DNA of 59,104 nucleotides, filler included, from Sphacelaria rigidula (taxonomy: Eukaryota): assembly GCA_964200075.2 (NCBI GenBank). It is 7 parts of 7 records of this genome, joined end to end, with 100 filler letters (N's around TTAATTAATTAA, not from the genome) between each part and the next. Parts side by side here need not be neighbours in the genome. Positions count along the whole stretch, not along the records: positions 50,748 to 59,104 come from CAXNAA020011406.1; 6 more parts are not named here. One strand, 5' to 3'. Position numbers and translations under genes: made by a program. Positions 1,300-58,800 of the stretch are shown here, in pieces. Below the pieces are notes generated by a model, which was not told the DNA's origin, made no database searches, and worked only from the letters and a program-made list of their open reading frames with translations. The first letter of the stretch is position 1. Every line of letters starts with the position of its first letter.

Positions 1300-1335
<36 letters not shown>

Positions 1336-1824
1336 TTTTGCATGTCCGTTTGTACCATGTTTAACGTGCTTGATTTCACGAGCTGTGTGCGTCCCAACAT
1401 GGCCGTTCTCACACTAGTTACACGCCCTTCAGAAACATCATGTAAACCGCCATCTCATATGTGGCTCTTGTGTTGAGTCCGTCCAGCCACGCAAGTCTTT
1501 TCTAGCGCTCACTGTAATTTCAACCCGATCCCTGGATGACGAACCTCTCTTTCTCTCTCTCTCTCATTATCCTCTTTTCCCTCCAAACCACTGTCTACTA
1601 CTTTTACTGTGCAGGGGGCGAAGGGTACGGAACTCCCTACGCTTGGGGTGGACCCTCCCCTTCTCTGCGACGACGTCCTGGATGCCGAGTTCGACTGCTC
1701 ATCTGGAGCAGACAACCATGACCACGACCACGACCACGACGAGATGTTGGGCTTCTTGGCGTGCGGCGAACCGCAATCACCGCTGATCGGGACGGGGGCG
1801 TTGGGGGGTTTGATAGGCGCATGA
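898..1824 (+). CDS. Last three exons of an unidentified protein (acidic C-terminus)
   Basis: Exons 898-966, 1078-1275 and 1615-1824 have AG/GT boundaries and are all phase 0. They splice to VDNFGSAATASVELRRAMKRCVE|SAKLRTLG...KGLWVDDPQ|GAKGTELP...GGLIGA*. No domain recognised. Confidence 0.55.
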
Positions 1825-2181
1825 AAAGGCTAAGAAGGTGGTAGTAGGGATAAACAGCAATCGAAACGAACCAAAGTGCCCATGGCGAATGGTTACGCGT
1901 GTATACTTGATGTTGTCGTCGATGTGGTGCTTTTACGTGGAGGTGATTGCGGGTGCGTGTGTATAATTGGGTGTGTCGAAGTCGCCATTGTTCGCCGTCA
2001 CTGTTACCCGACGTGCGTCGGAAATTTCCGCGCTCCCTGGTTCTTCTCATGCCATGCCGTCGTCCAGAGTGGGTGCGGGTGTGATCATAAGGGTGGCCAA
2101 CGAGGGCGAGACCGCGTGAACGCGAAATACCACACGTCGCTTGGAGCCGTTCTACAGTATGTACACCACCCTCCCCCCTCC

Positions 2182-2224
2182 GGTGCTCCGTTCCGAAAGG
2201 CAAGCAACAAATGAGTACGCCCCT
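2182..2224 (+). mobile_element. Internally deleted 3' end of the C-run-associated LINE family
   Basis: GGTGCTCCGTTCCGAAAGGCAAGCAACAAATGAGTACGCCCC matches the 51007-51077 copy with a deletion between two AAGG motifs. Both flanks are C-rich. Confidence 0.75.
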
Positions 2225-5684: not shown

Positions 5685-5752
5685 GGGCTCCGTCTCGAAA
5701 GGGATGCGTGGTCAATGGTCAAATGACTAAGGCAAGCAACAAATGAGTACGC
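5685..5752 (+). mobile_element. Short 3' end of the C-run-associated LINE family
   Basis: GCTCCGTCTCGAAAGGGATGCGTGGTCAATGGTCAAATGACTAAGGCAAGCAACAAATGAGTACG, with a TSD-like CTTACC(C)GG on both sides. Confidence 0.85.
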
Positions 5753-8359: not shown

Positions 8360-8459
8360 NNNNNNNNNNNNNNNNNNNNNNNNNNNNNNNNNNNNNNNNN
8401 NNNTTAATTAATTAANNNNNNNNNNNNNNNNNNNNNNNNNNNNNNNNNNNNNNNNNNNN
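8360..8459. other. Artificial contig spacer (also 16818-16917, 25276-25375, 33734-33833, 42191-42290, 50648-50747)
   Basis: Identical 100-nt N-run with a central TTAATTAATTAA (stops in all six frames), recurring every 8457-8458 nt. Confidence 0.98.
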
Positions 8460-8528
8460 CCCGGCTTTGGAGGGATGCGAGGTCAATAGTCTGATGACTA
8501 TGGCATGCATGATCATGAGTACACCCCG
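8460..8528 (+). mobile_element. SINE-like partner of the C-run LINE, variant tail, cut by contig start
   Basis: CCCGGCTTTGGAGGGATGCGAGGTCAATAGTCTGATGACTATGGCATGCATGATCATGAGTACACCCC. The same variant is on the minus strand at 16780-16817, 49886-49981 and 50578-50647. Confidence 0.8.
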
Positions 8529-10192: not shown

Positions 10193-10296
10193 GTGAGTTG
10201 TTGCGTTTCTACCTTGTTCTAAACCCAACTCCCACTGTTCCTCAGGGACAACCCTAGAATAGAAAGTTCTAACCTAGCCCCGAGCGTTGATTGTAC

Positions 10297-10362
<66 letters not shown>

Positions 10363-11225
10363 CTTCACATTAAAAACCGTTCCGATATCCGCGCGATACA
10401 TTCGTACTGGGCATCTGATGCGGACGCCTTCCGTGGTAACAGGCTGGCAAAAAAATATATATATAGACCCAGATTAAAACTCACCAATCGCGATACAAGC
10501 AAAAGAGGGATAAGTAATAAAGAATAAAGAGAGCATATATATGTGGCTAACCTCAGAAGATCCGGTGCCGCAGGTGGTCATTCGGACTTCAGGGGGTGGC
10601 CCCCGGCTTTCCAACTCGACGCGCGACGCCAAGTAGAAATGAATACAGGGTCCGACTACGGGGGAGACTCAAGGCCCCAAATACCGCTAACCAAAGAAGG
10701 AAGAATCGCAAGGTCCCATCTTTCGGCCTCTCGAGGGACAGCCATACGTACAAGGATACCAGGTGTATCAACACAAGCACTGTATGACACAACGACACCC
10801 CTCATCGGGGGGATTCACCCCCCACCCCCGCCCTTCTCTGGACCGTCGTCATTGCTGTGCTTTTTGGGCTTCGTTGGTCTCCCGTCTAATCGCAGGCAGT
10901 CGGCTTGCCTCCTCTTCATTTCTGTACCATGAGGTCATGAACCTCTCCGTTCCCTGCAGCACTCCCGCGTGCCACGGCAACCCCCCCTCCTTTTTTGCTG
11001 CTGAGGTCCATAGGGCGCGGTCACTTCCGAATGTCTGGCGGCTATCGTCCGTGGAGCCGTCTGTGGCTCCGAAAGCGTGGAGATCGTCTCTCAGGCACTT
11101 CAGCCAGTCTTGTTCCAGGCACCCTGGTCCTGGATCCTCCCCCCCGACTAGTGTTCCGAGTGCTATTCGCTTCGGTTGCACTGCGTGCGATGACTCGACT
11201 CGAGCTTCTTGCTTCGCTACCTGAG
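10297..11225 (-). mobile_element. 5'-truncated RTE-clade LINE with (CAA)n tail
   Basis: Minus ORF 10849-11229 (PKRIALGTLVGG...DWLKCLRDDLHAFG...WTSAAKK..W..GV..G.ERFM) resembles an RTE C-terminus. The 3' UTR and (GTT)n tail are repeated at 55772-56218. Confidence 0.85.
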
Positions 11226-14919: not shown

Positions 14920-16917
14920 GTGAATATACAACTACGTCCAGCAAAATTTTCAAAACCTATGTCTAACGCTACATTTACGCAGTCTCTGCTACCCGGCACC
15001 GGTGCGGATGATGCACAAGCAAGCGATGCCCTGTTCTCATCACCCATGGGGTCTGCATTACTCACCACCTCGTGTGAACCGCCGCACGTACGCCGACGCA
15101 AGTGTGTATTGTCGGTGGACTAGTGCACTGTACTGTACTCGTGTGATGGTTGCGTTCTCATTTCGGGACAAACTCTCAGTTCTCTTCCTTTTACCGTGGT
15201 CTAATTAGGAACCACCTGAGGGGAACTGGTGCTCAAAGGCGAGGCGCATTCTGGCAATCCCATCTTGCCTCAGATGTCGCTTGCACGTTCTCTCCCCGCG
15301 CAGCGTGGGTTTTCCCTCAACCCCTTCTTTACTCAGGTATTTGCACGATGCGTGGATAAGAGTAGGCGTATACTACAAAGAGTTGTTTCGCACGATGTCG
15401 AGGCGGGAATGATACTGTGGAGCATAACGTATAGCATCATGGCGCATATGTGTGTTAGCCCGAGTAAATGCAGTATAGAGCACGACAAACTTCATGTCCT
15501 GGGTTAATAAATATGTATGGTACTCAGGGGGCGGTGTTCAGAGAGAGTCCCCACGATGCCAACCCGCGATGTTGCTGTGGCTAGTAGTGCCTATCGCGAC
15601 CAAGTGGCGTCAAAAACTAAACCCTGTGTACATTGGTTAAATGTCTCTTAATCCATGGAGGCCTACCATGCATTCGAGAGTGGTCTTACATGAGGATACT
15701 TGTTGGCTTTACAGCGTCTTTTCTACGAGGCATCCCAAACGTATCATGTCGTTGCGCACCAGTGGTAGACTGACGAGAAATAAATATCTAGGCTTCCGTT
15801 CGGCATTTTTCAACCAAAGCATACCCCTCTCCGCCGATGCCCTCAAAAGTCGCTGCGCCGCTACCATCACCGAGCGACCCTGTAGGGCGCACGGACGCAC
15901 CTCCACTATGCACAATAAACGCTAAACGTCATCCCTATGTGCCGTCATTGGCTTCTCCAGAAAAATCGCATTTTTCGACTATCATTTTAGGCGTCACACG
16001 TACTCTGTGCAAGACATATCCTTTTTCATTCAACAACACAGCTGAATCAACCCTGGAGTCATCATGCTATGGGCTCCAGCTAATTTCGATTCAGTCGTCT
16101 CGCAGAATGTTACTGTAGTCGGGCGCGCACTCTCTTGTATGGATTGCTATGGAAGAACCAAAAACCACGGATAATGGCCAACCCTCCGCCACCGTCGCGA
16201 CCGTTGCGACCATTCGACCCCACACCGCTCTTTGATGTCCCTATAGTCTTCCCCCTCTCCCAGCCCTCGCATGAACCTTCAACAGGGACAAAATCAGCTG
16301 CACCCCGCGACGCCTCGCTCGCTCCCCCAATCCCGTCCAGTAGACGACCCACACTAGACTGCCTCCGTCGCAACCACTCGCCCCTTCCTTCGACGCGTCC
16401 GCTGTCATTACCCTCGTTATCTCGTCCGCCGACATTTCAGCTGCAACCACTACTGTGTGTGGGTGCGGGAGTAGACAAGAAACGCAGTGGCCGTTGCAAT
16501 CGCAACTTAGGGATAGTGCGGTTCCTTAAATACTTTCACGATCGGCACATACGACGTCTTGCCGCTACCCCGCTCCGACTTGTAAGTTCACCGCTACGCT
16601 CGGGGTTTCGACATTTGTTCGCATAACATCGATTGGTCCGATTGGTTGGGTGTTGCACATTAACTGATCCGGTGCGAATCCTGCCGTGCTTACAATATAG
16701 ACGGACGTACCCAACGTAAAAATAATCGGAAAAGATCGCTAAAGAGAACTTGACAAAGACGAAGTATGGGGGGGGGGAGGGGTGGACTCATGATGATTCA
16801 TGCCATAGTCATAAGACNNNNNNNNNNNNNNNNNNNNNNNNNNNNNNNNNNNNNNNNNNNNTTAATTAATTAANNNNNNNNNNNNNNNNNNNNNNNNNNN
16901 NNNNNNNNNNNNNNNNN

Positions 16918-18177
16918 GGCTCCGACCACTCGCCACGGACCTGTCCACGTGGACATCAACTTTGGCGCCACACCTTGCCTCCGAACACGGGCATGCAAAA
17001 CGAATTCATCAACTGCAAACTTGGGCAACACAGCCTGGCCCTGAGCAAGCTTGCGTTTGGTTTCGCGAGACACCGCGACAGCAGCTTGCACTTCGTTACA
17101 AAACCGTACTTGCTCGTCAACCACGCCTCGAACCTTGTCACACAACGAATCAGCATCCATGACATCGACGTTCCACTCGCCGCCACTAACGGAAGCCAGC
17201 GCGGGAAACGCTGTACGTGGCGCATGCCCAAACATTCCACAACACGGAATGTTACGGCAGCGTTCACGAAAATAAGTATTCAAGCCCCACTGGGCGACTG
17301 GCAAAATATCAACCCATTCAGACACCGGCCGTCGCTGTTCCGACAAAATAGACCGCAACGCACGAGTAGCCTCTTTCACCATTTGTTCACAAGCACCATT
17401 CGACCAAGGGTTATACGCAACAACAAATTGGTGTTGCACCTTAAACGCATCGCTCAGCTGCGCGATCACTCGATTGTTTAAGAGCGAGGCGGTATCCCTA
17501 AGCCAAACACGCGGCACCCTCAAAGTCTTGCACCAATGGAGCAATTGCTTAGCCGTAACCTCGGCGGTGCAAGCTTCGGTTGGCTCCAAGCAAACGAAAT
17601 TGGACAAATCATCAATGATAACCAAAATGTACCGAAAACCATCCTCATCAGGCAAACCATTAGTACCTTCAGGTCCGCTACTTCCGACGTACAGAAAATC
17701 AAAGTGAACACCTTCACCTGGCGCAGTACCATGCACAGTATCGCCACACGGACGAGGTAAAATCTCACCAGCACGGGTGTCTACACAATGCAAACACTGG
17801 CGAACGAACTCGCGAACGTGGAAATCCATGTGAGGCCACACACAGAATTCTTTCAAATGAAACAGAGTCGGCGCCACACCACGGTGACCAGCCGACCGCG
17901 TGTGAGCGCACACCATTAAGCGAGTTCGTACAACCTTATCATCCGATGGAATCCACAAAACATCAATACTGCTAACACGCACGCGAAACAAATCATCGTG
18001 AGCCATAGTAGCTGGACCGAAAGTCGGAGAGAAATAATCAACACCGTCGTCGACTGTTTTGCGCTGCGCGGTACGAATGACATCTAACGAGGGCACCGAA
18101 TCATCGGCATCACACGGGCTGCACATGGCAACAGAATGAATAGGCACGGTAGGAACCTTCACCAAGCGAGACAACAA
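16918..18177 (-). pseudogene. Gypsy integrase
   Basis: HHCC (AH...GHRG...CLHC), catalytic core (HFDFL...LRDTA...NGACE) and GPY/F motif (WTGPWRV). Confidence 0.9.
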
Positions 18178-18312: not shown

Positions 18313-19521
18313 CTAATAGTCGCTGACCAAACGGACTGTGTCCCTCTCCGGCACCGCCATCGCCGGACTCGCCCACACAACCTGAATATTCCTAACCAAC
18401 AAACTAAGTGCCACCATAACTGCGATGCATGAAGCAAGCCACCCGGTCTTCACCGGATCGTACCGTCTGGGCTTGGCCTTCACCGCACTTGTCTGGGACT
18501 TGAGCTGCACTTTCATAGGCTCTACGCGCGCTGGTGGATCACCACGCAGTGACCGGCGAAATGTATTTACGCGGCGAGAAAAAACATCGTGCGGACAATG
18601 TGCGCCATCGGCGCTCAGGCCCTTCTGCTCGGCCTGCCGCACACTATCCTCAAGCGCACTTTCTTGTGCACCTCTTTCCTCTGCTGGGTCCATAAACATG
18701 TCCGGCCCCCGATCGACCAAGCGCTCTACCGCTTCATCAGCAGGAGCCTTCTCCTCATTGGCGCTCTGGAATGATCGTATGTATACGATCAGACGCCTTG
18801 CAGCAAGGTAACTGGGGTTTTCCACGCCGGTTTGAACTGGCACAGCACGCGGACGTACCGTCTCCAACGCCAGCGGATACAGACCAATCCCGAGCTCCTT
18901 CATCGTCGCCATCCCAAATAGAACCAAGTTGTCCCTACCGGGTATGACAGCGAAAGTAATGGGCTGCAACTTCACAGCCCCCCACGGCGTACGCACGCTA
19001 ACAGTAATCGACACCGTTTTGTGTGTAACCGCCACGGGAGCACCCGTGGCGGTCTGCGCCGTTTGCGGTCCGTTTTCGAACGGAATCTGAAGCTGAGCAC
19101 CGCCAAACTGCAAAGATATCTGTTCTAGCAACCCCACACCGATCGACGTGAGCGCGGACCCAGAGGCCAGAATAACGTGGGCCATGAAGGAATCTACAGA
19201 ACCAGGCAAATTTAAATCCGCGCGTAAGCATTCAGCCTTGCGATCGACAGGTACCACGCCTGCCGAAGAACACTGTTCTGGACTAAGAGTCACCTGACGC
19301 CAGGGCTGCCCTCCAGCACTTGGCATCGATCGCTGCGAATCGTCGGTCCAACCAGACCAAGTCGCCGAATATGCAGACGGCGCTGTTACAATCGTCGCAG
19401 CAGTAGGGAATGCACCAGACACGGATCCTGCCTGGTCGAGGGGTTGCGAGCTATTCGCTCCAGCACTCCCCACCGGAGTATTTGCATTTCTCACGTACAC
19501 AGTCCGCCCTGCTACGGACAA
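18313..19521 (-). pseudogene. Gypsy aspartic protease and N-terminal RT remnant
   Basis: 402-aa ORF with VILASGSA (DSG mutated) and ...KAKPRRY...WASPAMAVP...RLVSDY*. Confidence 0.8.
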
Positions 19522-20293
19522 ACAGTAAGATCCAGAGTCACCACCTGATGATGTAGTGAAAGAAACAGCAGCGTAGGAACCACCATCCGCCGCCGATTGC
19601 TTGCTACCGCGGCCGCCGCGCCCGCGTCCCTGATTGGTACGGCCCCGTCCACCGTGACGACCGCTCCGAGATCCTGATGAATCTCAAATTGCCCTGTGCA
19701 GCGGCTTGAGCGTGAGGCTTGTGGCATTCCTTGATCATATGTCCGGTGTCGCCGCAGTTGTAACACGCGCGAGTGGACGACGCTCGCGAAGGCGGCTGCT
19801 GTTTCTGTTTCTGTTGCTGTTTGCGGCGCATACCACCTGCACTTGTTGCAGAATCGCGCCGGCTATGTGCTTCAATGAACTTCCACTGGTCGGCCTCAAA
19901 TATATTTCTAAACACCACCGTCGGTTTTTTTTTCAGCCGTGGACATACGTTAGCAGACTTCTCGCATACGCCTTGAATTCCGGAGGCGGAATCCCGTCCA
20001 CCAAAGCTATAGAAACCGACTCGGTCGAGCCTGGCAACCAACTCCTGTCCTCCGCACGGTACATGGCTTGCACCATCAGGTTTTCGGCTAGAAATCTTTC
20101 CATATCTGAACTAACCATCATCGCACGGTCCTTGACGGATTCTCCCCCGCTTTGCCTCATCGTAAGTACTCTACGCAGGTCTGCTGCAGCCCGCGCAGTG
20201 TCATGCTTTCCCCCGGCTGCAGTGTACCCGGCATGCTGCTTCACAGCATCAAGCAATTCATTAGTGGTCATAGCCCGATGGTCCTTGTACATA

Positions 20294-22868: not shown

Positions 22869-25168
22869 GCTATTTCCAAGTCACGACTTGAACATAGTTA
22901 TGTCCAAGTCCAGCTGCGATTTGCCTACCTGCCCGCGTTCGTCCTATGTCCCTTGCATCGACACTACAACACCCGGAATTCATTCACACAGTCCGTAGCC
23001 ATCGTTCAACCCATCGCACGGTAAAAACAGCCTCGTAGCGGACGAGGAACGCGCCTGCTGCACAGTGCCAAAACATACCGCCGCCCGACTGGAGTTGGAC
23101 ATGAGCTATATGTATGTACAAGTCGCGACTTCGCGACTTATGTCCAAGTCACGACTTGGGCACTTTGGACATAGCTTATGTCCAAGTCCAGCGAGTGGAA
23201 TACCTGTCCGTGCTTGTCCCATGTGCCTTGCATCGTCACCACAGCAGCTGGAGTACACTCACCCAGTCCGTAGCCAACGTTTAAGCCATCGCACGGTGCA
23301 AACGGCATCGCAGCGGACGAGAAACGCGCCTGCCACGCACAGTGCCAAGACATACCGCCAACCGGCTGGAGTTGGACGAAATCTATGTCCAAGCCGCGAC
23401 TCGGCGACTTGAACACAGCTTAGGTCAAAGTCCAGCGAGTGGAATGCCTGTCCGCGCTCGTCCCATGTGCCTTGTATCGACACCACAGCAGCTGCAGTAC
23501 ACTCACACAGTTCCATCATTCAAGCCATCGTGGGGTATAAACGACGTTGTAGCAGAGGAGAAACTCGCCTGTTGCACGCAGTGCCAAAAATTATATCTGC
23601 ACCGGACTGGACTCGGACATAGCTTCTAGCAAGTGGAACATCTGTCCGCGCTCGTCTCATGTGCCTTGTATCGACACCACAGCAGCTGCAGTACACTCAC
23701 ACAGTCCGTTGCCATTGTTCAAGCCATCGTGGGGTGCAAAGCTAAGGTACGGGAGCCGTATCACGGTGCTGTAGCCTTGAGGGCTAGATACACAACAAGG
23801 GCCTTCTTCCTCGCAGCTCCTACAGCCGTGGGATATCGACCCACTGGTTGTGTGTCGAGGACACCGCCGGTGCGACGAAGAAAGGGTCGATTCATGGAGC
23901 CACTTCCGCGTTTGGTACACGTTATCCGCACTTCGTACACAACAGCCCCAGGTTACACGGGCATTGAGCAATATCCATGAAGCTTGTATGAAGTTGGTCG
24001 CACTCGTCTTGACGTTGATAACGTACGACGCGAGAGAGCTGAGCAGTGTGTACATTTCTAGTTTATTGAACACAGTAGATACATGTTCACGCTGCCTGGA
24101 ACCTCAGTGCATCACGGAATAACACAAGTGGAACGTACAAGTGGCAATCACCTGTCGGCGTTCTTGTCTGCAACGCGGCCGGTATCAATCGCAAGCACAT
24201 GATTACGTGCTCCCATGCCCTCAGCCAGCATAGCGTATGTTCAAGTTGCTCAAGTCGCGTTTTTTACAAAAGCTATGTCCGAGTCCAGTCCGTTGCAGAT
24301 ATAATTTTTGGCACTGCGTGCAACAGGCGCGTTTCTCGTCCGCTACAACGCCGTCTGCACCCCACGATGGCTTGAATGATGGCTACGAACTGTGTGAGTG
24401 TGCTGCAGCTGCTGTGGTGTCGATACAAGGCACATGAGACGAGCGCGGACGGGTATTCCACTCGCTGGATTCGGACAAAGCTTATGTTCAACTCCAGTCG
24501 GTTGGCGGTATGTCTTAGCACTGTGTGAGGCAGTCGCGTTTCTCGTCCGCTACGACGCCGTTTGCACACCACGGTAGCTTGAACGATGACGACGGACTGT
24601 GTAAGTGTATTGCAGCTGCTGGGTTGTCGATACAAAGCACATGGGACGAGCGCGAACAGGCATTCCACTCGCTGGATCTGAACATGAGCTTTCTCCAAGT
24701 CGCCAAGTCGCGGGCGGTATGTTTTGGCACTGTGCGTGGCAGTCGCGTTTCTCTTCCGCTCCGAGGCCGTTTTCACCGTGCGATGGCTTGAACGATGGCA
24801 ACGGACTGTGTGAGTGTACTCCAGCTGCTGTGGTGTCGATGAAAGGCACATGGGACAAGCACGGACAGGTATTCCACTCGCTGAAGTTGGACATCAGCTT
24901 AGCTTATGTCTGACTCCAGTCGCGCGGCGGTATGTTTTGGCACTGTGCAGCAGGCGCGTTCCTCGTCTGCTACGAGGTTGTTTTCACCGTGCGATGGCTT
25001 GAACGATGGCTACGGACTGTGTGAACGTATTCCAGGTGTCGTAGTGTCGATGTAAGGCACATAGGACGAACGCGGGCAGATAGTCAAATCGCAGCTGGAC
25101 TTGGACATAACTATGTTCAAGTCGTGACTTGGACAAAAGCTATGTCTAGGTCGCGACTTGAAAATAGC
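22869..25168. mobile_element. Foldback element with long modular inverted arms
   Basis: The left arm (22869-23740) and right arm (24237-25168) are reverse complements. Each is built of about four diverged 200-280-bp units, with a ~500-bp non-repetitive centre. Confidence 0.88.
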
Positions 25169-25189
25169 GTTTCCCCCCCCCCAAAATAA

Positions 25190-25244
25190 AATAATAATAG
25201 AAATAGTAATACTAATAATAGTAATAATAATAGTAATAATAGTA

Positions 25245-25275
<31 letters not shown>
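25190..25275. repeat. (TAA)n microsatellite at contig end
   Basis: Visible TAA/TAG triplet run. Confidence 0.9.
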
Positions 25276-25399
25276 NNNNNNNNNNNNNNNNNNNNNNNNN
25301 NNNNNNNNNNNNNNNNNNNTTAATTAATTAANNNNNNNNNNNNNNNNNNNNNNNNNNNNNNNNNNNNNNNNNNNNGGCATTGTATACTACAGCAGCTTT

Positions 25400-33068: not shown

Positions 33069-33135
33069 TGCTCCGTCTCGAAAGGGGTGCGTGGTCAATG
33101 GTCAAACGACTAAGGCAAGCAACAAATGAGTACCC
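33069..33135 (+). mobile_element. Short 3' end of the C-run-associated LINE family
   Basis: TGCTCCGTCTCGAAAGGGGTGCG...ATGAGTAC, flanked by TSD-like CCCCATCAT on both sides. Confidence 0.85.
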
Positions 33136-33186
33136 CCCTCCCCCCCCCATCATCTACAGTCTGTCGACATTGAGAGTCTTGTCGAA

Positions 33187-33450: not shown

Positions 33451-36147
33451 CCCGCCATGACCTCGGAGTCACAAAAGGGGGAAACGGCAAGCTACTGGTG
33501 GACCTCGTTCTCAGTGTAGCCTGCGTGCTGCTTCATATAAGCGAAGAGGCACAACAGCTGTACGCTGTTGTACGGTGTACAAGTGTTCTAGTCTCAATCA
33601 CATTTTCGAAAACCACCTAGTACAATGTATGTAGAATATAAACTAAAACGTTTTGCTGACCAGACCCGCAACCAAATAACAGCCGATCCTAATTTTTGGG
33701 GTTGAAACATAAAATGAGGTTGAAGTCCCATTTNNNNNNNNNNNNNNNNNNNNNNNNNNNNNNNNNNNNNNNNNNNNTTAATTAATTAANNNNNNNNNNN
33801 NNNNNNNNNNNNNNNNNNNNNNNNNNNNNNNNNGAGCGTGCATTTTTGTGTCTCGCAGTTTTGTTCGTGTTAGTTTTCACGTCTTTTCTACATCCCAAAT
33901 GATCCATAATTCTTGAGGCAAAAGCAAACATATACCACTGCGGAGTTGTCTGGTGCTGGGTGTACTATCCTGTACTCAAAATAATGGGGTCATTTTTTTC
34001 ATCTTCTGCTCGTTTTTGAAATGTTTTCTGAAAAAAACGAGAGTGTTTCTTGTCACGGGATTTCTAATGCCGAATCTGGAATAGCCTGAAACAACAACCA
34101 ATTTGAAAATTAGAATTCCGGCTCATCAAAAAACGATCTCATGAAGCTGTTGCATGTAGATGGTGGCGTTGGTGCCCATGATGTGCGGGCCCTAGTACCA
34201 CTGGAGCTGTAGAATGAAAGGTGTTACCGATTGGAAACGTGTGGCTCAATCCGGGATTATCCTAGCCTGAACACTACATACCAACACGCACTCCGTCAGG
34301 CCTGGAATGCAGTTCAACAGCTCCGGAACTGTAGTGGTATGCGAATTGCCGCCTCCCGGTTGTCGCGTCTCGAACAGATTGACAGCGTCGAGAATGGGAC
34401 TTTCATCGATCGATAGCACTTGACCCGACCTCACTCTCGACTCAGCATCATGCTGTCGACGCGTACTGCGTCAAGGCTGACACTCCGTTCGACTGGTGGG
34501 CATTTGACATCACGTAGTGCTGTCGTTCGGACGACTCGTGTCACCTTGTCCTCACGCGATACACACCTTAACCGTGTTCACTTGACGGTGGGATAAGCTC
34601 TCTTCTCCTGCTCTTATCATAGTGCTTGTACCTAGCCCTCCCACCACCACGTCTCTCGTCTACACACATCAGCACCACGCACAAAAAGACACACCAACGC
34701 ACACGACAACGAGGCTAACTCCTAACGCGGAAACATCACATACAGCAACGTGATCAGCGACACCCTTCAGTTCTCCGGCTCGCACTGTTCCTTCTCTGCT
34801 CGACGCCACACACAACACGACGTACGCGTCCTTTTCTCGTCCTTCCCCGGTCACGGTCACGTGTCCACCCGTCAAACAAACACATCCCAACCGTCAAGTA
34901 TGTCAAGACGGGCTTCCCGCTCCCAACTAACCGAATAGCAATCCTGAAGACAAACAGCAAAACAAGTAATAACAACGGTCTGCCCTTGTGACGGCCACCT
35001 GTTGTAGTATTTTATATTAAATAAAACGCTCAGCGCATGCCATCGTCAGGCGTCGAAGCTCGTTGGAAATAGACACCAAGACTCCGACAAACGAATGCTC
35101 GATGGTTTCAACGCACCCAACAGCCAACCTTGCGCTACCACATCTTTCGAAGCCGCTTGCCTTACTCACCGCTCCACCTGCGAGTATTAGCCTCTGTGAG
35201 GTGTGTTCGCTTCGTTAGTCCGTAGTCGCACACAAGACAAAGACGATTGCCTCGCGTGCTGCTGCCACTCGCGAATTTTGCATGCCCGGCACAACTGCTC
35301 TCAATTGGCTAAAAATGAAGACCCAATAGAAACCATCCCCACACAGTATCAAGTACCACGAGCTGGCTGCTCTGTGCTACCAACACCAGACGAAAATGGT
35401 GTTCATATCATGCTTCATAAAACCAGCAGTCGATATCCTGACGTCCGTGTCCCTTGCTGCCTGACCTCCTACATCGCCGGCCAAGACGAGAAACGAATCA
35501 TGAACATCAACAAAACGAAAACAGGCCGTGTATATTCTCATTACCCAACCTGCTGTGCAGGCTGGCAATTGTAACCAGTCGGCTAACTTACCAATTCATC
35601 GAGCAACAACCTCACTAAAACAGGAAAAGCAGGTGCACATGAAGAAGCAAGCCACACGCCCCTCATGGAAGCAGTGTGATTTGCTCGTGCGTACCCGTCC
35701 ATCCCGCCCCTCCACCACCTCCATGCGTTTCGGTGAACTTATCACGACAACCCGGCCACACGCCGGTTCTTTCGTCATGCCACCAGTTATCCAAGCCATC
35801 GTACACACGCACCCAACAAAGGCCGCATGTACGACTTCAGCCAGATCAACGGAAAAGCAGAGCGGAACAAAACAAAACATACGCGGAAAAAGACTACCCT
35901 GCAAACAGACGCCGCAATACCGTGGTAGCGCCCCCACCGAGACGCACCCACTTCCGCGTACACACAAAAACACATCATCGTTCCACGTAAGTTTCCACGG
36001 TCTTTAGTTCATCCATCCAAGTTATTCCACGAACGGACACCATTGACCCGCCGCACCCTTTTCTTCGCAATTAACCAGCATGAGTACTACCTCCAGGTCT
36101 CCTACGATACTTCCATCCCCCCTCCCCCCCGCGCACGAGCGAGACCT

Positions 36148-41395: not shown

Positions 41396-42599
41396 CTGCA
41401 CAAACGGTGGAAATTGAGAAGGAGACGAGATAAGGTAGGGAGAGCAGAATATGATAAACACATTGATGGAACCGCAGGAGATACGGCGGATATCACCCGA
41501 GAACGAAGAGGAACCATATATTGATTCTCTCCAGAGAAGTGACCCCGCAATGTCATAAAATCTCCACATTATGTTTACTTCGCCGAAAGTTCAGGCGATG
41601 TGACTTTTGGTGACCCATAACCAATAGTCGAATTTCCCAATCGCCGCCTGCGGGGATGCACTCGGCCCGAACCACGACAAGGGCTGTGGACAATACACAG
41701 GGGATCCACGCGTGACTGGTTAACTCGGAAGGCGAACACCAACGTACGGCTTGTCATCTCACTGGCTCATCCCTCTGGTTTTGGTGTGAAGCACTGCATG
41801 AATGGTGTACTGCAGCTGAGAACAGCACAGTGGCACGCTAGAATGTTGGGGAATATCAACGGCACATCCAGTCGGCATAGCATCGTCGCCAACGAAAGAG
41901 ATGCATGAATGCACAAAGCACACGTGCACACATATCTGCGACGGCAAATGAGCTCTTCATTTGAGGACACCGAAAAGCCTCGAGCACACCGCAACCATGT
42001 ACTTGAGACTCGTTGAAAGTTTCACCTCTTGACTACTTTGCCTCTGCAACACCCTCATCACGCACTTCATATACACCCGATCAAGTGAGCCAGACGGCTC
42101 CTTACCCCCTGTATTGAACCCCCCATGAGGCAGTGTATAAGCCGTGGCTGTCTCTGGAAGTGGCGATACCAGAAAATAAAGCAACTCAATNNNNNNNNNN
42201 NNNNNNNNNNNNNNNNNNNNNNNNNNNNNNNNNNTTAATTAATTAANNNNNNNNNNNNNNNNNNNNNNNNNNNNNNNNNNNNNNNNNNNNGGGGGGGGGG
42301 GCGCCGGGTTTTCGCCGGACCAGGCTCGGGGGGGAGGGGGAGCTGGCTAGAAAAAATGCTTTGGGCACGCAGACGCGTGTGTTGTACTACAGTTGTCGTG
42401 TTACGCGTGAGTACGAAATTTGAATTTGGGTTTATTGCGGATTTGACTCGTCAGGGGTTCGCTACCTGTACACTCTTATTTGCCTACCCCACCTGCAAAA
42501 GGGTCGCGCCTCATGGAATGACAGGTGGGAAACAGCATGTAAACATGATTAATATAATGTTAACACAAGGTGGAGAACATGTACGCATGATTTGCGATG

Positions 42600-45900: not shown

Positions 45901-48630
45901 TGCCGTGAGCGATATGTATTACCCACATATTGTTGGCATTGGCAATCGATAGCTGCCTACAATAATCCAACCTTGACGGCAAAGGCAATCGATAAGTTGT
46001 TCCCCAAATCAATCGATGATGGAAATGATGATCTAAAGGTACACCCGAGAATCTATTGCGGTATACGATGTCCATCAATGACCAGTGATCTCAATAGATT
46101 GTAACTGCCGTAGACTACTGATTGAGGCTCAAGACATGTCTTGTCGCTCACAATACTCATCAATTGATGTGTTTCACCATCTGTTGCGTTGGACAACATA
46201 TATCGCGAGGTTTCCCCCGCGTATATTATTGAAGAAATTGAATATTGCCGTGTTCATTGCCCAAAGCGAAGTGCTTCGTTCTGTGAACCTTCGGTGTCTT
46301 CATATATGACCACGGCTGCATTGTTCGAGCTTAATAAAATATGCGACAACAAATCCATCAAATATTTGACCAATACGTATACCTCTCTAGTTGTACTTAT
46401 TTCTTATCGGGATTGGCGTTGATCGACTTCCGATGTAGCGGGGATTCTAGCATTAGGTATCTGCCATATAATATCATGATATTTCTCAAAGTTGATGCCA
46501 AAGGTCACTCTACAACGAACATTCGAGTCACAAACGGTTCCAACTGAGAAACACAACTGTTACACATACAATATTGTACTAAATACTACTGAAGCATCTT
46601 TGTTCTCTGTTCCTTACGAAGTAGCTCGTTTCTCTCGCGCTACGGTATTTTGGTCGCCAAGGTCCGACCTACTCGGTCATCATTGTATGTGTCAGGTGAT
46701 GGTGACGCTAGTGTCCAACATGAACAAGACCAGACACGACATCAACATCTTCATGGTACGCTCTTATCCCATCACACGGCAAGCAAGCACGAGCACAGGA
46801 GCACAGGAGCACAGGGCACACACAAATGCGCTCGAACTGCTGAGCACGCGGGCGCTTCACGAGAAAGCACAGCTACGACAAGAATAGACGGCAGCTTCCT
46901 TACCCGCAGGATCGTCCAATTTGGCAGTATCGCGCGGGACGGTTTTTACGTGTTCGTCCGAAGCGTTGACCTTCGGCTTTTTCTCCGGCAGGGGTGCCCC
47001 AGGCCGAGTCCACTGCGTTGTCTTTTTAATGCTGTCCTGGTAGTACGTTTTGCCGGCCGGGGTCTTCAGCTCGATCCACCCTGGTGAGTCCAGCGAGATA
47101 CAGATGATTACAACCAGCGAAACACGAAAGGCCTGATACAATCCCCCACCACGAGCTTTGCGTGATCGTACGAAGCACCAAGACATTTACTGGCCACGAG
47201 CTTGGGGGAAAACGACCACGGAGACAAGAGCAGAGCACAATATCACAAGCTTTTTTGTATTGAATCATTTCGACAGATATATTTCGAATCCGGAGAAAAA
47301 GGTTTTCTTGGACGTCCAGCAGGGAGTCAACGGAACGGCAGAATGCGATTCACGCAAAGCCGTGAGGGTAGGGGCAGAACAAGCGCGATCAGCAACATAG
47401 GCTGCGCATACTTTGGCCAACGCCAGTGATGATGAAGGGACGGGTAGGGCATCGTACATGCAGCAGCGTAGCAAAAATCAAACACATGCTAAGCCCAGCA
47501 ACTGGAATGGACGCCTGCAAAGAAACGGTACAAAACTCTGAAACGACCAGATGACAACTTGAACTATAAAAAAGTTTATAACAAACACACCCACAGCACA
47601 ATTCCCAACCCACACAACGCCCTTCTCTCTTCACACAACAAGCAACGAGGATCCCCGCACACATCCATCTTGCCACGACGATCAAACGCCAACCTGCTAT
47701 CATCGATGACGCTCTCAATCGACGAAAATGCAGTGACACCGTGAGAAGGACATCGTCCACGTAACTTGCCTTCCGGAAGCGGTGGCAACTCGGGCTCGCC
47801 TCTCGAGCCCACCGCACTAGCAGAACTAACTACACCACTCGCACGCGCATCGGCCACCCCCAACTTCGCCACTGTCGCAAGCCCAGTCGCATCATCAGGC
47901 ATATCACTCGTGGGGGTTCCGTGGCCATTCCCGGGCCGGCTTACACTACTACTCCCAGCCCGGTGCTGATCGACAGGTGCTCCAAACAATCCCGTCTTCA
48001 GCGCCGATAAAGGGCCGTTGTTCCCGTCTCGCTCATCTCCTGCGTCCGACTTCCAGTCGGGATTCGCGTGCGCAGCAACACCTGTGGTAGCAGAGGCGAC
48101 GGACCGTGCGGTTCCGGCGACATGTGACGCTGCGGTGGCCGCTGAGGGGTTCGATTTAGCGTGTACGGTAGCTGATGGTGCTCGCTCACCGGATCCGGGG
48201 TCTGCGCTGTGTGCCTGTCGACCTTCCGCGCTCACCACCGCAGCACTGCTAGCACCATTGCCGTTGCTGCCCTCCAAGTAGCTGCTGGGGTTTACATTGC
48301 GGAGGGCTGAATCTCGAGAAGCAGCAGTATTATAAACATCGGTAGGGTCAGGATCTCCGTCGTCATCGTAATCTTCGTCAGGTTGGTCATCTTGCGCACG
48401 ACCCCTTCTACTGTCGGTGATCGAGTCAGACGCCACGGCGGTTTGGTGAGTGCTGTCAGCCGTGGTGAAGGGAGTGTTGTACTCCGGAGACGATGGACCG
48501 CCTCCGTTGTTCGTTGGGGCTCCGTAAACGGTGCCCGGTTTCGGAGCAGGCGGGCGCGTCCAGTGCGTGGTCTTGTCGTTGTGATTAATGTAAAACACCT
48601 TGCCTTCCGCGGACATTCGCTCTTCCCAAC
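42948..48630 (-). CDS. Multi-WW-domain protein, internal exons
   Basis: Exons 48630-47770 (GWEERMSAEGKVFYINHNDKTTHWTRP), 47080-46904 (GWIELKTPAGKTYYQDSIKKTTQWTRP), 43554-43300 (WEKVMTADGRPYYQNSVTRETSWRKP) and 43028-42948 (ends PLPP-G). All junctions are phase 1. Confidence 0.85.
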
Positions 48631-49664
48631 CTGCCACCCGTCAAAACGGAACCGCACCAAACCACGGGCCCACCCATTCTTTTTGAATCAGCATACCTAC
48701 GAATAGACAAGCCCAACTTTTTTAGACCGGTGGTCAACAGGGTGGAGTAGACGCTGTAGAAAAAAACAGGACGCCAGCCTACTCGCCAAGACTGCAGGGG
48801 GTGAAATGAGCAAAAATAGATTGATCAAATACGCATGACGAACGATTGCTTCACTTGAAAAGGCTTTCTTTTCATGAACCAAATATTCATCGTTCTCCCT
48901 TGTCTTCTTCCATATGTTCCCCCTGGTCGAATGGTAGAGGAAATCCACAAAACAAGCACCTTGCTGGAAGTCAGAATACCAAAAACCACACATTCAAGTA
49001 ATGCCATACGCATGGTTCATCAGTAGCAGCAACAGTATTCGCTACTACGCTTCAAATTATACTAGCCGCAGTCCCCACCCTCCCGACAAAGTCAGGTCGT
49101 CCCTATCGGGACGGATTGAAGTCGTGAGTTGGACTGGACTGCAGTGCGGCCCAAGGTATGTATGGTAAATAGGAGCCCTCTTCCCGCCGAGTGCCGTAAA
49201 ACACGGTATTCACCACCGCTGGTGCGTCCGTTTCTTGGAAGTCCAGAAACTTGTTTCCCGTCAATAATATTTAGGATGACTATGAGTGGGGTGATGTGCC
49301 ACGTTTCCCACTGTAGTGCTCTATGTATTGGTATGATGAGGACAGAAGCCGAAAACGTATCGACTAGGGGTGCTTCCCAGGAGGGGTGGGTGTCTGCACA
49401 CTTGCGGTGCAGGCTTGTCGCAGATAGTGTAGTACGACACAGCAACGAAATAACATAATTTTACACTATCTTGTTTTACTACACAACACAACACACCACA
49501 GCACACAATTTATTATTTTTCATTATGTTTCAAGAACTACAATATCATTATGTATTTTCCAACAAGAGTCTGCGCATGGTAAACTTGATCCCGACCTCTC
49601 AAAACATGGGGCTGGGCTCTTACCCGTAACTACATCCATATTCTGGACGGGGCAGGGGCGGGGG

Positions 49665-49981
49665 GTACTCACTTGTTGCTTGCCTTCGTCATTTGGCCAG
49701 TCATAAGGCATCCCTTCCGAGATGGAGCACCAACCCTACTACTCATCACGTTCATTCCACATTACAGAAAACCTTTACATATCTCATTCCACAGATGTTT
49801 CGCCTTCTGTGGTCACCATGATTCTCCTAGTGCAGCGATCATTTTCCAGCTACTTTCTAATGTACAAGGCGAGCGAGGGGGGACTGTACTCATGATCTTG
49901 CATGCCGTTGTCATATGACCAGTGACCTCGGGTCCCTAACAAGCCGGGCCGGAGCACGCCGGGTTTTCGCCGGACCAGGCT
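49665..49981 (-). mobile_element. Older LINE 3' fragment (49665-49870) plus adjacent SINE-like partner (49886-49981)
   Basis: Reverse complements of 50850-51072 and 55481-55576 respectively. Both end in GAGTAC next to G/C-runs. Confidence 0.8.
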
Positions 49982-50326
49982 CACAATCGATCACCAAGCG
50001 CGAAGCGCAGTGATGTAATGTGTTCGGCGGGTCGCGGAAAGGGTGAGCTGCATCCTGCTAAGATCGTTCGGCCCAGAACGTACTGATCATCGAGCAAATT
50101 GATGACAGCCTTCAATGAGTTGCTTCATTTTCTGGTATCGCCACTTCCCGCGGCGGACATGGCTTACACACTGCCTCATGGATCTCACCATAGGAGGGAG
50201 GGAGGGTGGGGGGTCATTTGGGACGTACGAGTCACACGACGCATGAACCGTATTATGCGGTAACAGGGACGTTGTCATACCACAAGCCAAAGGACACATG
50301 ACCCATTCGTAACTGACGGGTCCCCT

Positions 50327-50385: not shown

Positions 50386-50747
50386 TTCGAACGGACACAA
50401 TGCAACCAGATGACTCGAGTGAACGGTGATACTGTATTGTAGAGTACATTGTGCACGAAACTGCAACAGACCTTTTGTACCTAGACCGCTCCCTCAATGG
50501 TAATATGTGAAAGTAACTGTTTCTTGCTACAAGTCACAACGCAATCTTGGATGAGTGAGAAATGAAGGGAAGGGTGAAGGGTGTACTCATGATCATGCAT
50601 GCTATAGTCATCAGACCATTGACCTCGCATCCCTACGATGCCGGGACNNNNNNNNNNNNNNNNNNNNNNNNNNNNNNNNNNNNNNNNNNNNTTAATTAAT
50701 TAANNNNNNNNNNNNNNNNNNNNNNNNNNNNNNNNNNNNNNNNNNNN

Positions 50748-54500: not shown

Positions 54501-55772
54501 ACGCGGTCGGGTTGCATTTCCATTCGCTAACCGACGTCGAAATTGGCGCCAGTACATCTTCCTGAAAAGTCGTCTAGTTCCCGCTGGCGTTTCGTCCACA
54601 TGATTCTCTACCGTACGGGTGCCTCGAACAAATTCGGAGATTAAGCTGCCAGTCTAGGAATCGAGCCCTTTCTCTCGACGATGGGCGCTTTTGTATAACT
54701 CACGGGTAAAAATATCGAAGATCCATCAGGGAAACTCACCTTTGCCTCAGCCAGAGTTTCAATAAGGGCCGTATTGTCCAGAATGTTTCCCTCGCTTTCA
54801 CTCAGCAACCGAAGGATTTGGCTCTCGATGTTGTACAGCTCGATATTCATGGCAGCCCCGTTGATCACAAGCTCCTCCTGGAAGGGATCGATTTGACAAG
54901 ACATGGTAAGCACGGTCAAGCGGCGCGCGGAACGTTAGGGACACGTTGGCTCGCCAAAATCATGCAACAATATCGACGCCGGCGATGAGGATGCTCCGAG
55001 CGTCATCGGGTGCGAACTCGGACGTGCGGTGAGAAACCTCAAACCTAGGGTTAGGGTTAGGGTTAGGATTAGGGTTACCTGCCTTGACGTATATTTTGCG
55101 CGTTTTGTTCTACAAGCAGTAGAAGAGGTGCACGGCTCTTTCAGTGGATACGGTGAGTCGTGCTACGATAGGGGGATAGGGGGGGGGTGTTCGATTCCGC
55201 GAAAAAATGGGTTCATAGGTTCGTCAGACGTCCCAACACACTCGCGGTGCGCTTGTATTTGGGTAGAAGCGATGTTAAACAGTATGAGGGAGCATTACAA
55301 CACGGAAGCAAGCGCGTTCGAACTACCGTTGCTGCTGTTAACGTCGACTGCGAGTAGGATTTCATGGAAAAAAACGGCCCAAAATATCCCCCCCCCCCCC
55401 GTTGCTCCGTCTCGAAAGGGATGCGTGGTCAATGGTCAAATGACTAAGGCAAGCAACAAATGAGTACGCCCCCCCATCGTAGCCTGGTCCGGCGAAAACC
55501 CGGCGTGCTCCGTCCCGGCTTTGTAGGGATGCGAGGTCAATGGTCAAACGACTAAGGCAAGCAACAAATGAGTACGCCCCCCCCATCGTAGAATTACTCC
55601 GGTGCACTGTTTTTCAATTGTTCTACGTGAACACCAGTCTTCTCTCTTGGATACAATCAAGCCCATAGTCGGGTTCCTTCGCAGTGAAGCGATCAAGAAA
55701 CAATTTCAAAACGTCCCAGACATCTGCAGAACAGTGCTCTACAAAACGGTTTCACGGCACCAGAGCACCTGG

Positions 55773-55804
<32 letters not shown>

Positions 55805-58800
55805 GGTATTGCTGTCTTCAAATTACACGTTACACGTTTCGACATCTGCGCGGTACATTCGTACTGGGCATCTGATGCGGACGCCTTCCGTGGTCACAGG
55901 CTAGCAAAAAACCGAAAAAATAAGTAGACCCAGATTAAAACTCACAAAACGCGATAGGAGCAAAACAGGGATAGAAAACAAAGAAAAAAAGAGAGTACAT
56001 ATCGCTAACCTCAGAAGATCTGCTGCCGCCGGTGGCCATTCGGACTTCAGGGGGTGGCACCCGGCTTTCCAACTCGACGCGCGACGCCAAGTAGAAATGA
56101 ACATGGGGTCCGACTACGGGCGAGACTTAAGGTCCCAAATACCGCCAACCAAAGAACTAAGAATCGCAAGGTTCCATCTTTCGACCTCTCGAGTGACAGC
56201 CATACGTACAAGCATCCCGGTGAAAAAGAATTATCGGTGGCGAGGTTCGACGTGCCTGTGTCCAAAACGCGGTGATCTTGCTGAACCCTAGGTTTAGTGA
56301 GAGAATACTCCCACATGTTCATGAGAGAAGATATCGCTTGAAACGGGCAACAGCAAAGTTGAACGTCGCTCTTTTTCGACCGAGCATCGCCACAATTCTC
56401 GGGGTATTGATTGATGAATTGATTCTGATTGATTGTCGCACATTTGCGGATCCCCGAAGGATCCAGCCGTGGTCACGGGATAGGGTGTAGTAGTGCGAAC
56501 AAAACAAAACACGAGAAGAAGGACACTCGAGACAGAAACAAGAGGACAAAACAGGAAAAATCGAACGAGCGGAGGTATCCGAACAAAAACCAGAGACAAA
56601 CAAAACGGTACAAAAAAGAAAACGAAGAAGGGAAAGGAAGAGGAGAAGCAAGGGGAACAAGAACGACGAACAACAGTCGGTCGCGTTTGGGGGGAAAAAT
56701 GACTCTCAAAACGAATAAAGAGAGGGAGAGAGAAAAAGGACGGAAGGAACATGGAGGGGAAACATGAAAGAAAAAACAAACAAGAGCCGACCTCTAGAGC
56801 ATGGTTTTACAACCATGTGAGGCAGAAACTCCACCTTTTTTGAGGCCAGATCCGGCAGTTCTTCCTTCACCGCCGTGTTGAGCAGCTGTTCTTCGAGACC
56901 TTTCACTGTAATCGTGAAATTCAGTAGCGACACTTTAACCTGGGACGAGCGACCGGTGTGAGGAGATGCGGGTGGCTTCAGCAGGCAAGCGCACCCACCT
57001 CGGCAGCCACGATGCTCCGCACGGAAAACAGCGAACACCCCAAAACTACAAAACTGTAAATATTTCACACCCTGGATGATGACAATATATGGTCAATAGA
57101 TGCAATAGACGACAAGTGTACTGCATAAAGTATAGGCCTATTGCGACTATTGCCGGCCGACAATAATCGCAATAGGCCTATATTTTATGCAGTACGTTCC
57201 TTGTCTATTGCAACTGCTGACCACATATTGTCCAAGTTGTGAGATATTTGGAGAGTAAAAACATCTGAGCGACTCTCATTTTCACAAAAATGATTACATG
57301 TGCCGTCCCAGTACCCGTAAGAATTGCATGATCCACAATAATTCTCAAAATATTCCAACATACACCCAGATAGCCAACCCATCGATAGAGCGCCGTTAAG
57401 GCGCCGCATGCGGCTCTTTCACTGGAGTCCCCGACACATGCGAGAAGTGCAATGATATTGAGTTTCGGAGTGCAATGATATCCGTCTCTTGGATACGAAG
57501 TGAGGATATTGAGTTTCAACGAGGCACGGGGACCTCGGTGACACGCGAAAATGTGTAGAGTTTAAAACGTCACGGCCGAATTTTCCCCCGTTTCTCGTGA
57601 CGCGCAAGAAACATCCCTCATTCCGCCTTTTTTTTCCTCAGTAGTGATCACCACTTGGTCGCTTAGAACCTTCCCGGAATTATATTACTGGATTCAAGTG
57701 TAAATACCGATATTCAGATCTTCAGTGGGACTGACAGCCCCAACTGTCCCTAGCCCGCGACGCGTTTTCGTCAAAGTCGGCGCCGCGCTAGGGAACGCTT
57801 TGCACCCCCCTCGCCCGAGGATTCTCGGTATGCCTTGGGTTGGGGTTGGGGTTAGGCTTAGCGTTAGTTCGACATAATGTGTTTCCGAGAAATTTCTTCA
57901 CCGACGAAGTGGCACACACCCCTGCCTTTGTCTTACTCTTGGTGAAAGCAGGAACCTGCCCTCAGTTCCGAACGAACCTGAATTTCAGGCGCGTATTCCG
58001 GATTCGGAAGCTTCGTAATAAGTAGTAGGCGAAAGTCCTCGTGGTAAGGAACGGTGTTGTCTCCGAGTCGGATCATGTCCTGCCCGCCCTGCTTGAACTT
58101 CTGCTGGAGCAGTATCGGCTCCAACGCCGCATCAAGCTCCTGCGGTGTTGTATTTAATTAAAACAATGTCAACAGAGGACGGTAACACAGTCGTGATGGA
58201 GTCGAAATGTACAGAGACTAATACGAACAGAAGTCCAGCGTGTAGAATCACTGCGCAGTCATCCATGGTAGCTGGAACGACGAGAGCACCCGTTCGGTTC
58301 ACATCTGATAGAACCAGTTTTAGTCAGTGTATATCATCTCCAAGTACTTACCATTCAGTGTTTTCGAGTATCCTATTTGGCGTATTTTCTTCTCGTGAAG
58401 CAAATGTGTCTCATTCTCCGGTGAGGATTCTTTGGACACAGGTAGCCATCAACATCGGCGGGGCAATACCCTGGCGAAACATTAAAAAGAGATCCGCGAA
58501 AGTCGGAAGGTTACTGTTAGTTCTGATATCCGGCGAGATGTTCACCAGTGAGACGCCTCTCGACTGATCCCGGATCGTTGTTGAGCGACAAATTTTGCGT
58601 TGCTTCGTCGCGTTGAAGACAGGTGCCACAAATACCTCAGACTACGAGCAAACGCAAAACGTCCTAGTAGATGGGTGCTTGAATGGGTCAAAACCGACGG
58701 AAAATTTCACACCCTGGACAATATGTGGCCAATAGATGCATTAGACGAGGAGTGTACTGCATAAGGTATAGGCCTAGTGCATCTATCGCCGGCTGACGAT

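Follow-up and report, generated by a model that had tools for sequence, protein, structure and literature searches.

The window analysed here is a stretch of 59,104 nt (linkers included) from the assembly GCA_964200075.2 of the brown alga Sphacelaria rigidula, and it carries two groups of repeats that have a 3' module in common. Copies of the first group (A1 to A6) are LINE-type, belonging to a long interspersed nuclear element (LINE) with an apurinic endonuclease-type (APE) domain and a reverse transcriptase (RT). The second group, here called B, is probably a non-autonomous retroposon that resembles a short interspersed nuclear element (SINE) and depends on the LINE. It has a long form of ~296 nt and a short form of 95 nt, both of which would be copied by the RT of the APE-type LINE.

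The window is not one locus. It is composed of seven whole and separate contigs (8359, 8358, 8358, 8358, 8357, 8357 and 8357 nt) of a size-sorted assembly, with N-runs every 8458 bases. The contigs are joined by N44-TTAATTAATTAA-N44 linkers (8360-8459, 16818-16917, 25276-25375, 33734-33833, 42191-42290 and 50648-50747), and adjoining pieces have no physical linkage. Six of the 14 contig ends (8460, 16817, 42190, 42291, 50647 and 50748) lie inside A or B repeats; very high-copy repeats break short-read assemblies in this way. Eleven element 3' ends are present: six LINE-type ones (A1 to A6), four with a variant tail (B2, B4, B5 and B6), and that of B1. The copies and the flanks of B1 are as follows.

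2181-2218, plus strand: A1, LINE-type module with an internal deletion
5687-5750, plus strand: A2, LINE-type, module only
8460-8522, plus strand: B4, B-type module with the variant tail, interrupted by the start of contig 2
16784-16817, minus strand: B6, diverged B-type tail, interrupted by the end of contig 2, then a C-run
33069-33133, plus strand: A3, LINE-type, module only
42123-42190, plus strand: 5' part of another long-form B copy, ending at the end of contig 5, with its 5' start as in B2
42291-42326, minus strand: B3, head only (42302-42326), then 11 C on the element strand and the contig end; C-rich flank upstream
49665-49862, minus strand: A4, diverged LINE-type 3' fragment of ~198 nt, directly downstream of B2
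49886-50181, minus strand: B2, long-form B copy of ~296 nt with the head internal (49957-49981) and the variant tail
50583-50647, minus strand: B5, B-type module with the variant tail, interrupted by the end of contig 6
50748-51072, plus strand: A5, LINE 3' fragment from the start of contig 7, whose frame enters the module and ends at a TGA in the tail
55403-55467, plus strand: A6, LINE-type, module only, 65 nt, directly upstream of B1 and preceded by 13 C (55388-55400)
55468-55480, plus strand: left target-site duplication of B1 (G, C7, ATCGT)
55481-55575, plus strand: B1, short-form B copy of 95 nt, with the head (55481-55505) and the module (55506-55575; B-type first hairpin, LINE-type tail)
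55576-55589, plus strand: right target-site duplication of B1 (G, C8, ATCGT)

The deletion in A1 takes most of both hairpins of the module and spares both module ends. B3 is a module-less head between two C-runs (42291-42334), and it could be an internal deletion across the stem base, an odd insertion or an assembly break.

B carries a head of 25 bases in front of the module. As the original prediction had it, the head is found without a mismatch at three loci, 55481-55505 (+), 49957-49981 (-) and 42302-42326 (-), and it is missing at the equivalent position of the LINE-type copies. None of 100 shuffles gave an exact match to this 25-mer (0 expected, three observed). The claim that all three loci start at the head did not survive: only two do, and the copy at 49981 (B2) reaches ~200 nt further upstream, to 50181. 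The locus at 42326 has the head, but no tail is visible there, since the head stands alone before a C-run and the contig end. From the head to the terminal GAGTAC the span is 95 nt in B1 (55481-55575) and 96 nt in B2 (49981-49886), and the two copies are 85% identical over 105 nt.

Two tail types exist, as had been predicted. The LINE-type 22-mer is found six times exactly and once with one mismatch; the variant tail is exact at 8501-8522, has one mismatch at 50583-50604 and two in the copy at 49981. B1 joins a B-type first hairpin to a LINE-type tail. The tail is indeed swappable: the loose ends of public contigs behind 55545 show the same B body with both types. Between 624 and 730 of these contigs change to the variant tail behind this position, so the variant is the usual B tail and the LINE-type tail of B1 is a minority combination.

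A scan of public genome contigs with the LINE-type tail pattern led to L004, a stray eukaryotic contig of 5259 nt in a bacterial bin. Its minus strand (113-4261) contains one open reading frame (ORF) of 1382 aa with an Exo_endo_phos domain (E = 8e-11) and an RVT_1 domain (E = 7e-32). This ORF traverses the entire module and stops at the TGA of ...AAATGAGTAC, after which come a G and 13 C. The stop codon lies ~4 nt from the 3' end of the element (terminal GTAC), and the module is therefore both the last ~66-70 nt of the LINE and its last ~20 codons. The module of L004 is identical to the window copies A2 and A6, and the LINE fragment A5 keeps the L004 frame and has the same stop. The C-terminal 233 residues of the LINE protein have four relatives (83, 69, 67 and 65% identity), two of which belong to Ectocarpus sp. 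CCAP 1310/34. The C-terminus ...NGAPSRKG.V.NGQMT.ASNK recurs in three of the four relatives; the remaining one, P0005, is a fusion that passes into an unrelated protein before reaching it. The C-terminus is conserved in the Ectocarpus relatives at 67-83% identity. Since the closest named relatives are in Ectocarpus, the LINE is a brown-alga-type element. The genome bin of L004 contains only the one LINE contig, besides an unrelated RT (34% identity), and the LINE protein had no match among public viral contigs. At ~520-570 on the sense strand of L004, upstream of the LINE ORF, there is an antisense, diverged module-like stretch, which suggests that there may be further module-bearing families.

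B1 and B2 match the LINE copies over ~70 nt alone, at 81-95% identity. Within this module B has five extra bases in the first hairpin loop and one in the tail, so the LINE reading frame is not kept. The 229 nt upstream of the module in B, head included, did not resemble at the DNA level either the last kilobase of the LINE, its 5' region or the whole of L004: the B body scored 10 against LINE DNA (shuffle mean 10.4-10.8) and 11 against the whole contig (12.2). Translations of the B body against the C-terminal 400 residues of the LINE gave no likeness either, with 48, 80 and 106 of 200 shuffles scoring as high or higher in the three frames. A hand alignment of the head with the LINE coding sequence near the LGDR motif was rejected after it failed a shuffle test. 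B2 has no open frame in its ~296 nt, as there are stops in all three frames. A Cys/His pattern in one B2 frame was dropped, since it is not kept in the copy at the end of contig 5.

Protein searches gave a concordant picture. Frame 0 of B was searched exhaustively with HMMER in public protein collections and yielded 63 cluster representatives. Of these, 61 are short ORFs (56-183 aa) that arise from spurious translation of B copies at separate loci. The two long matches, P0015 and P0047, were rejected because both are bacterial immunoglobulin (Ig)-repeat proteins. None of the 63 representatives carries an RT. Frames 1 and 2, with stops written as X, had no match among proteins of 145-2000 aa, which is weak evidence; in this limited search over all three frames, no longer RT-bearing relative of B was found. 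The long form of B had no match in the genome bin of L004. Head patterns gave only chance matches in GC-rich bacterial or phage genes among viral and metagenome contigs, and tail and core patterns gave none among viral contigs. B is non-autonomous, without an RT of its own. At least 61 clusters of small "proteins" in public collections (within P0006-P0068) are mere translations of the B repeat, and P0067 is a translation that passes from a B copy into a LINE-type tail.

The 5' ends of B fall into two classes. The first 66 nt of B2 recur at 42123-42188, at the end of contig 5, with 88% identity. Both copies share the start CATGAGGCAGTG, and each is preceded by sequence that is C-rich and otherwise unrelated. 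The same long start is found in the public translations P0011, P0016 and P0029. In P0011 unrelated sequence runs right up to nt 3 of the long form, and the sequences upstream of B2, the contig-5 copy and P0011 are mutually unrelated. P0016 and P0029 reach nt 3 and then share 48 further residues found nowhere in the window.

The 5' ends were surveyed in two ways. In the first, Logan contigs of four runs were aligned to 55350-55650 (301 nt); each of the three DNA-type runs had 54,027-95,531 matching contigs, and the fourth run had 5,639. The public runs that contain this stretch bear labels of one coded organism and of algal, protist or marine metagenomes. Contigs extending upstream of 55481 numbered 1230, 1375, 1486 and 208 in the four runs. 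Their consensus before 55481 has an agreement of ~0.5, and its last ~12 bases, the same in all four runs, match the upstream sequence of B2. Contigs that extend before 55403 likewise give the LINE upstream sequence. As both B2 and the public contigs continue upstream of the head, the head is internal and not terminal. Run X6, guessed to be RNA, has the repeats in its contigs, which by their nature cannot reveal a separate short transcript. In the second survey, the 61 public short proteins were mapped back to B2 by tblastn and their sequences inspected; this sample, drawn through ORF callers, is biased, not obviously towards the head. In 18 of the 61, the match to the long form starts between nt 198 and nt 207 (the head begins at nt 201), whereas 19 reach nt 63 or further upstream. 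Another 24 start at nt 96-176, mostly limited by the called ORF start. The residues that precede the start in the 18 head-start copies resemble neither B nor one another, and 17 of these copies have at least five such residues. About a third of these upstream stretches end in prolines, and therefore in a C-run.

B thus has two discrete forms, ~296 nt and ~95 nt long. The head-start class is real and frequent, because the 18 public copies, B1, B3 and the contig joints from tails to 55481/55483 agree; it is unusually sharp, and it is a preferred short form, not the full length of the family. The fixed 5' end of the original prediction stands in this sense (18 of 61 public copies and two window copies), but not as the end of a complete element. 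The idea that the 95-nt unit is the whole element fails on the ~296-nt form, which occurs with its own shared 5' end both in the window and among the public copies (at least 19 of 61). Copies extending upstream into a LINE ORF had been named as the mark of a truncated sister LINE: copies do extend upstream, but into sequence that is non-coding, lacks an RT and is unlike the LINE. The short class is the more uniform one (mean identity to a short-class reference 0.87 versus 0.73). A separate short-only lineage was rejected as unproven, since nine rows with B-long upstream sequence are equally close to that reference. The LINE-type copies have a preferred short form too: A1, A2, A3 and A6 all start within ~3 nt of TGCTCC, and this start coincides with the start of the similarity between LINE and B.

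The flanks of the copies point to C-runs as insertion sites. The flank match of B1 (score 12, a duplication of 12-13 bp) was reached by none of 500 shuffles. A3 has duplicated C-rich flanks (score reached by 5 of 500 shuffles), while the candidate duplication of A2 (GCTTAC..CCGG) is not significant (65 of 500). In the clear cases the C-run is part of the duplication, and therefore the elements insert at C-runs, including those behind earlier copies. This in turn accounts for the arrays A6-B1 and B2-A4 and for many joints in public contigs that go back from a tail to an element start. Of 454 joints, those leading from a tail to 55403-55406 have the best support, and those to 55481-55483 are among the best; such joints represent head-to-tail arrays. 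Loose ends behind tails in the public contigs are long C-runs. A and B copies are dispersed in unrelated flanks on six of the seven contigs. Across the window there are 43 runs of at least 6 C or 6 G (e.g., 55388-55400, 33133-33148, 16768-16777 and 25173-25182), many of them without an adjoining recognisable A or B copy. The copy-free runs could serve as insertion targets, or they could be what is left of very short copies or of different families.

Searches for a known RNA were negative. In agreement with the original prediction no tRNA, 5S or 7SL likeness was found in the window (ARAGORN: 0 tRNAs; Rfam: 0 matches at gathering level). With both strands of 49600-50260 and 55380-55620 searched at E<=10, Rfam gave no ribozyme or relevant family; weak matches to SNORD60, sR30, SurA and mir-7578 were rejected, being far below thresholds and in irrelevant stretches. 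A hammerhead or hepatitis delta virus (HDV)-like core could not be drawn by eye, and since HDV-like folds are hard to detect with Rfam models the ribozyme negative is weak. As no head of the RNA polymerase III (pol III) type was found, B fails the strict definition of a SINE. It does have other SINE traits: it is short, non-coding and dispersed, and B1 has a target-site duplication. The predicted fold of the module consists of a closing stem and two hairpins. The proposed extension of this stem to 9 bp by the head can be formed only in the copy at 55481; the copy at 49981 has no GCC partner, and its best fold does not outscore shuffles (z = +1.05).

A LINE-dependent retroposon is the reading that fits these observations best. 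The LINE enzyme would recognise the module in trans, with stringent 3'-end recognition, and B would be inserted by target-primed reverse transcription, in which a G-run of the nicked strand may pair with the 3'-terminal C's of the RNA. Structural recognition of the module by the enzyme is plausible by analogy with the stem-loops treated in a review of SINE/LINE pairs (PMC3747384). Behind the sharp short 5' end could be either the enzyme, with a preferred stop or a jump between templates, or an RNA whose own start is the head; the observations fit both. The original proposal of a minimal RNA mobilised by the LINE is upheld in that B is non-autonomous, SINE-like and shares only its 3' end with an APE+RT LINE, but not in its size, as 95 nt is not the whole element. 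Several points weigh against the LINE-dependent reading. The folds of seven copies (z between -1.31 and +1.05) and of the 299-nt long form do not surpass those of shuffled sequences. In an RNAalifold analysis of eight sequences, for which the B rows had been misaligned in their 5' part by MAFFT, compensatory changes were absent from all 13 predicted pairs, and changes were one-sided (e.g., U·G to C-G). A structural recognition signal is therefore an assumption. Five of seven flank tests for target-site duplication were not significant by shuffling. That the LINE enzyme acts on B is inferred, and the LINE itself is known from the stray contig L004 in a bacterial bin, not from the assembly of the window. 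The public copies came through ORF callers, and 24 of 61 are uninformative on the 5' end. Finally, the 48 upstream residues common to P0016 and P0029 mean that the true full length may exceed 296 nt.

The same upstream residues, which leave room for longer forms, also bear on another explanation, in which B is the 3' end of an unsampled autonomous sister LINE and the 296- and 95-nt forms are 5' truncations at two hot spots. The extension of B2 upstream of the head agrees with this, as does the preferred short form of A1, A2, A3 and A6 near TGCTCC, and 5' truncation is usual for LINE copies according to the available part of a review (PMC3747384). Against it, the 296 nt of B2 have no open frame, protein searches returned no longer protein (frames 1 and 2) or 61 short ORFs and no RT (frame 0), and B outside the module is unlike the known LINE. 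B2, the contig-5 copy and P0011 moreover start at the same base behind mutually unrelated sequences. A sister LINE is quite improbable. The original prediction in its strong form is also unlikely. It would make the 95-nt unit, like the 66-nt LINE module, a minimal template sufficient by itself, with a 5' end formed on the RNA ahead of reverse transcription. The RNA could cleave itself, be processed by an endonuclease, or be trimmed by an exonuclease that stops where the enzyme is bound to the 3' part, and the 296-nt form would be an older or extended relative. The precise junction of the 18 copies that start at nt 198-207 behind unrelated sequence speaks for a pre-made end, together with the well-supported joints to 55481-55483, the greater uniformity of the short class, and the 5' end of the LINE-type short copies, which is the boundary of the A/B similarity. 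Against it stand the nine copies with B-long upstream sequence that lie no further from the short-class reference than the short copies do, the lack of a ribozyme or small-RNA family match at E<=10, a hammerhead or HDV-like core that was not drawable by eye, and the hypothetical status of a 95-nt RNA species. Should the 95-nt and 66-nt units nonetheless be true minimal templates with uniform 5' ends made on RNA, by a self-cleaving or processing signal of a kind not recognised so far or by a halting exonuclease, and inserted into C-runs tens of thousands of times, which has only a small chance of being correct, they would be among the shortest retroposons known. B would then have arisen when the enzyme, on reaching the end of an RNA with the module alone, switched to a different RNA, which would explain why the boundary between LINE and B is the module-only 5' end.

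A spread of B without retroposition, by recombination, tandem duplication or a DNA transposon, with the shared tail as a satellite-like coincidence, is very improbable. Common head-to-tail arrays and many non-significant target-site duplication tests speak for it, but the tail coincides exactly with the 3' end of an APE+RT LINE, the copies are scattered over six of seven contigs between unrelated flanks, and B1 has a clean duplication of 12-13 bp. A common 3' end with differing 5' ends is the signature of target-primed reverse transcription, and the copy sequences show no terminal inverted repeats.

Some other features of the window were also noted. At 16870-18177 (-) an open frame of 435 aa encodes two integrase domains, one zinc-binding and one core (Pfam), and is probably part of a long terminal repeat (LTR) retrotransposon; the adjacent frame of 456 aa (18313-19683) has no Pfam match. 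Arrays of a ~209-nt unit in both orientations occupy 22869-25140, and after them (AAT)n in ~31 copies (25185-25275) reaches the contig end. A repeat of ~450 nt is common to contigs 2 and 7 (10286-10765 and 55772-56222; 87% identity) and begins with a short tandem array. An open frame of 354 aa at 47576-48640 (-) has a WW domain at its start (Pfam), and it is probably an exon of a host gene.

The B family would show how little sequence a LINE enzyme needs: ~70 nt, which are also the last 20 codons of the LINE, would suffice to carry an unrelated RNA to very high copy number in a genome of the brown-alga type. The two sharp 5' ends are useful for asking whether short LINE and SINE copies come from stops in copying or from RNAs shortened beforehand. 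The C-run flanks are unusual for LINEs. In practical terms, A and B elements break short-read assemblies and yield many spurious small ORFs in public protein collections.

Classical SINEs have a head derived from tRNA, 5S or 7SL RNA with an internal pol III promoter. Unlike in these, no pol III-type head was detected in B by ARAGORN or Rfam. Among SINEs that form stringent-type pairs with a LINE is the eel UnaSINE1, whose partner is UnaL2. In its available part, the review by Ohshima (PMC3747384), from which the following comparisons are drawn, treats SINE/LINE pairs with common 3' ends as general and gives 58 of them, one being the tobacco TS SINE and an RTE-clade LINE, and also headless RTE-derived elements. 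Like the stringent pairs (tobacco TS), B and its LINE have the last ~70-100 nt in common, with presumed recognition in trans by the LINE enzyme. Unlike in those pairs, the shared part lies in the coding region of the partner LINE and not in its 3' untranslated region. The headless elements Bov-A2, RTE1-N1_LA, MAR4 and RTESINE1 (Table 1 of the review) resemble B in being non-autonomous, without a pol III head and with a LINE 3' end. Their 5' parts come from the 5' end of the partner LINE, whereas the B body resembles no part of the L004 LINE.

In RTEX families of green algae the 3' end is a simple repeat such as (CA)n, (CAA)n or (CCAT)n (Table 3, PMC3747384). The elements described here are similar in that a simple repeat, and not poly(A), stands behind the 3' end and copies abut the same repeat at the target, but the repeat is a C-run. 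A thin literature search, over sources available in part, found no LINE with a C-run end, which is weak evidence that none has been described.

The closest counterpart is in Ectocarpus sp. 7, where the most abundant transposable element family is RTEX-N1_Ec32, a non-autonomous element of ~600 bp described as "possibly a SINE" (PMC12477816). According to the available part of that account, its 3' end is shared with the RTE-X LINEs RTEX-1 and RTEX-2_Ec32, and its 5' region is of unknown origin. B differs in length (~296 and 95 nt versus ~600 bp), in a comparison made by description only, and the available account of RTEX-N1_Ec32 mentions neither a discrete short form nor C-run flanks, both of which are seen in B. 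Of the partner LINE, the APE+RT domain order and the Ectocarpus relatives are shown. Like RTEX-N1_Ec32, B is short, non-autonomous, present in very high copy number and has only its 3' end in common with an autonomous LINE, and the lineage is likewise brown algal, with a LINE whose closest named relatives are in Ectocarpus. As far as the available description goes, B is a new member of the kind of element already described in Ectocarpus as RTEX-N1_Ec32.

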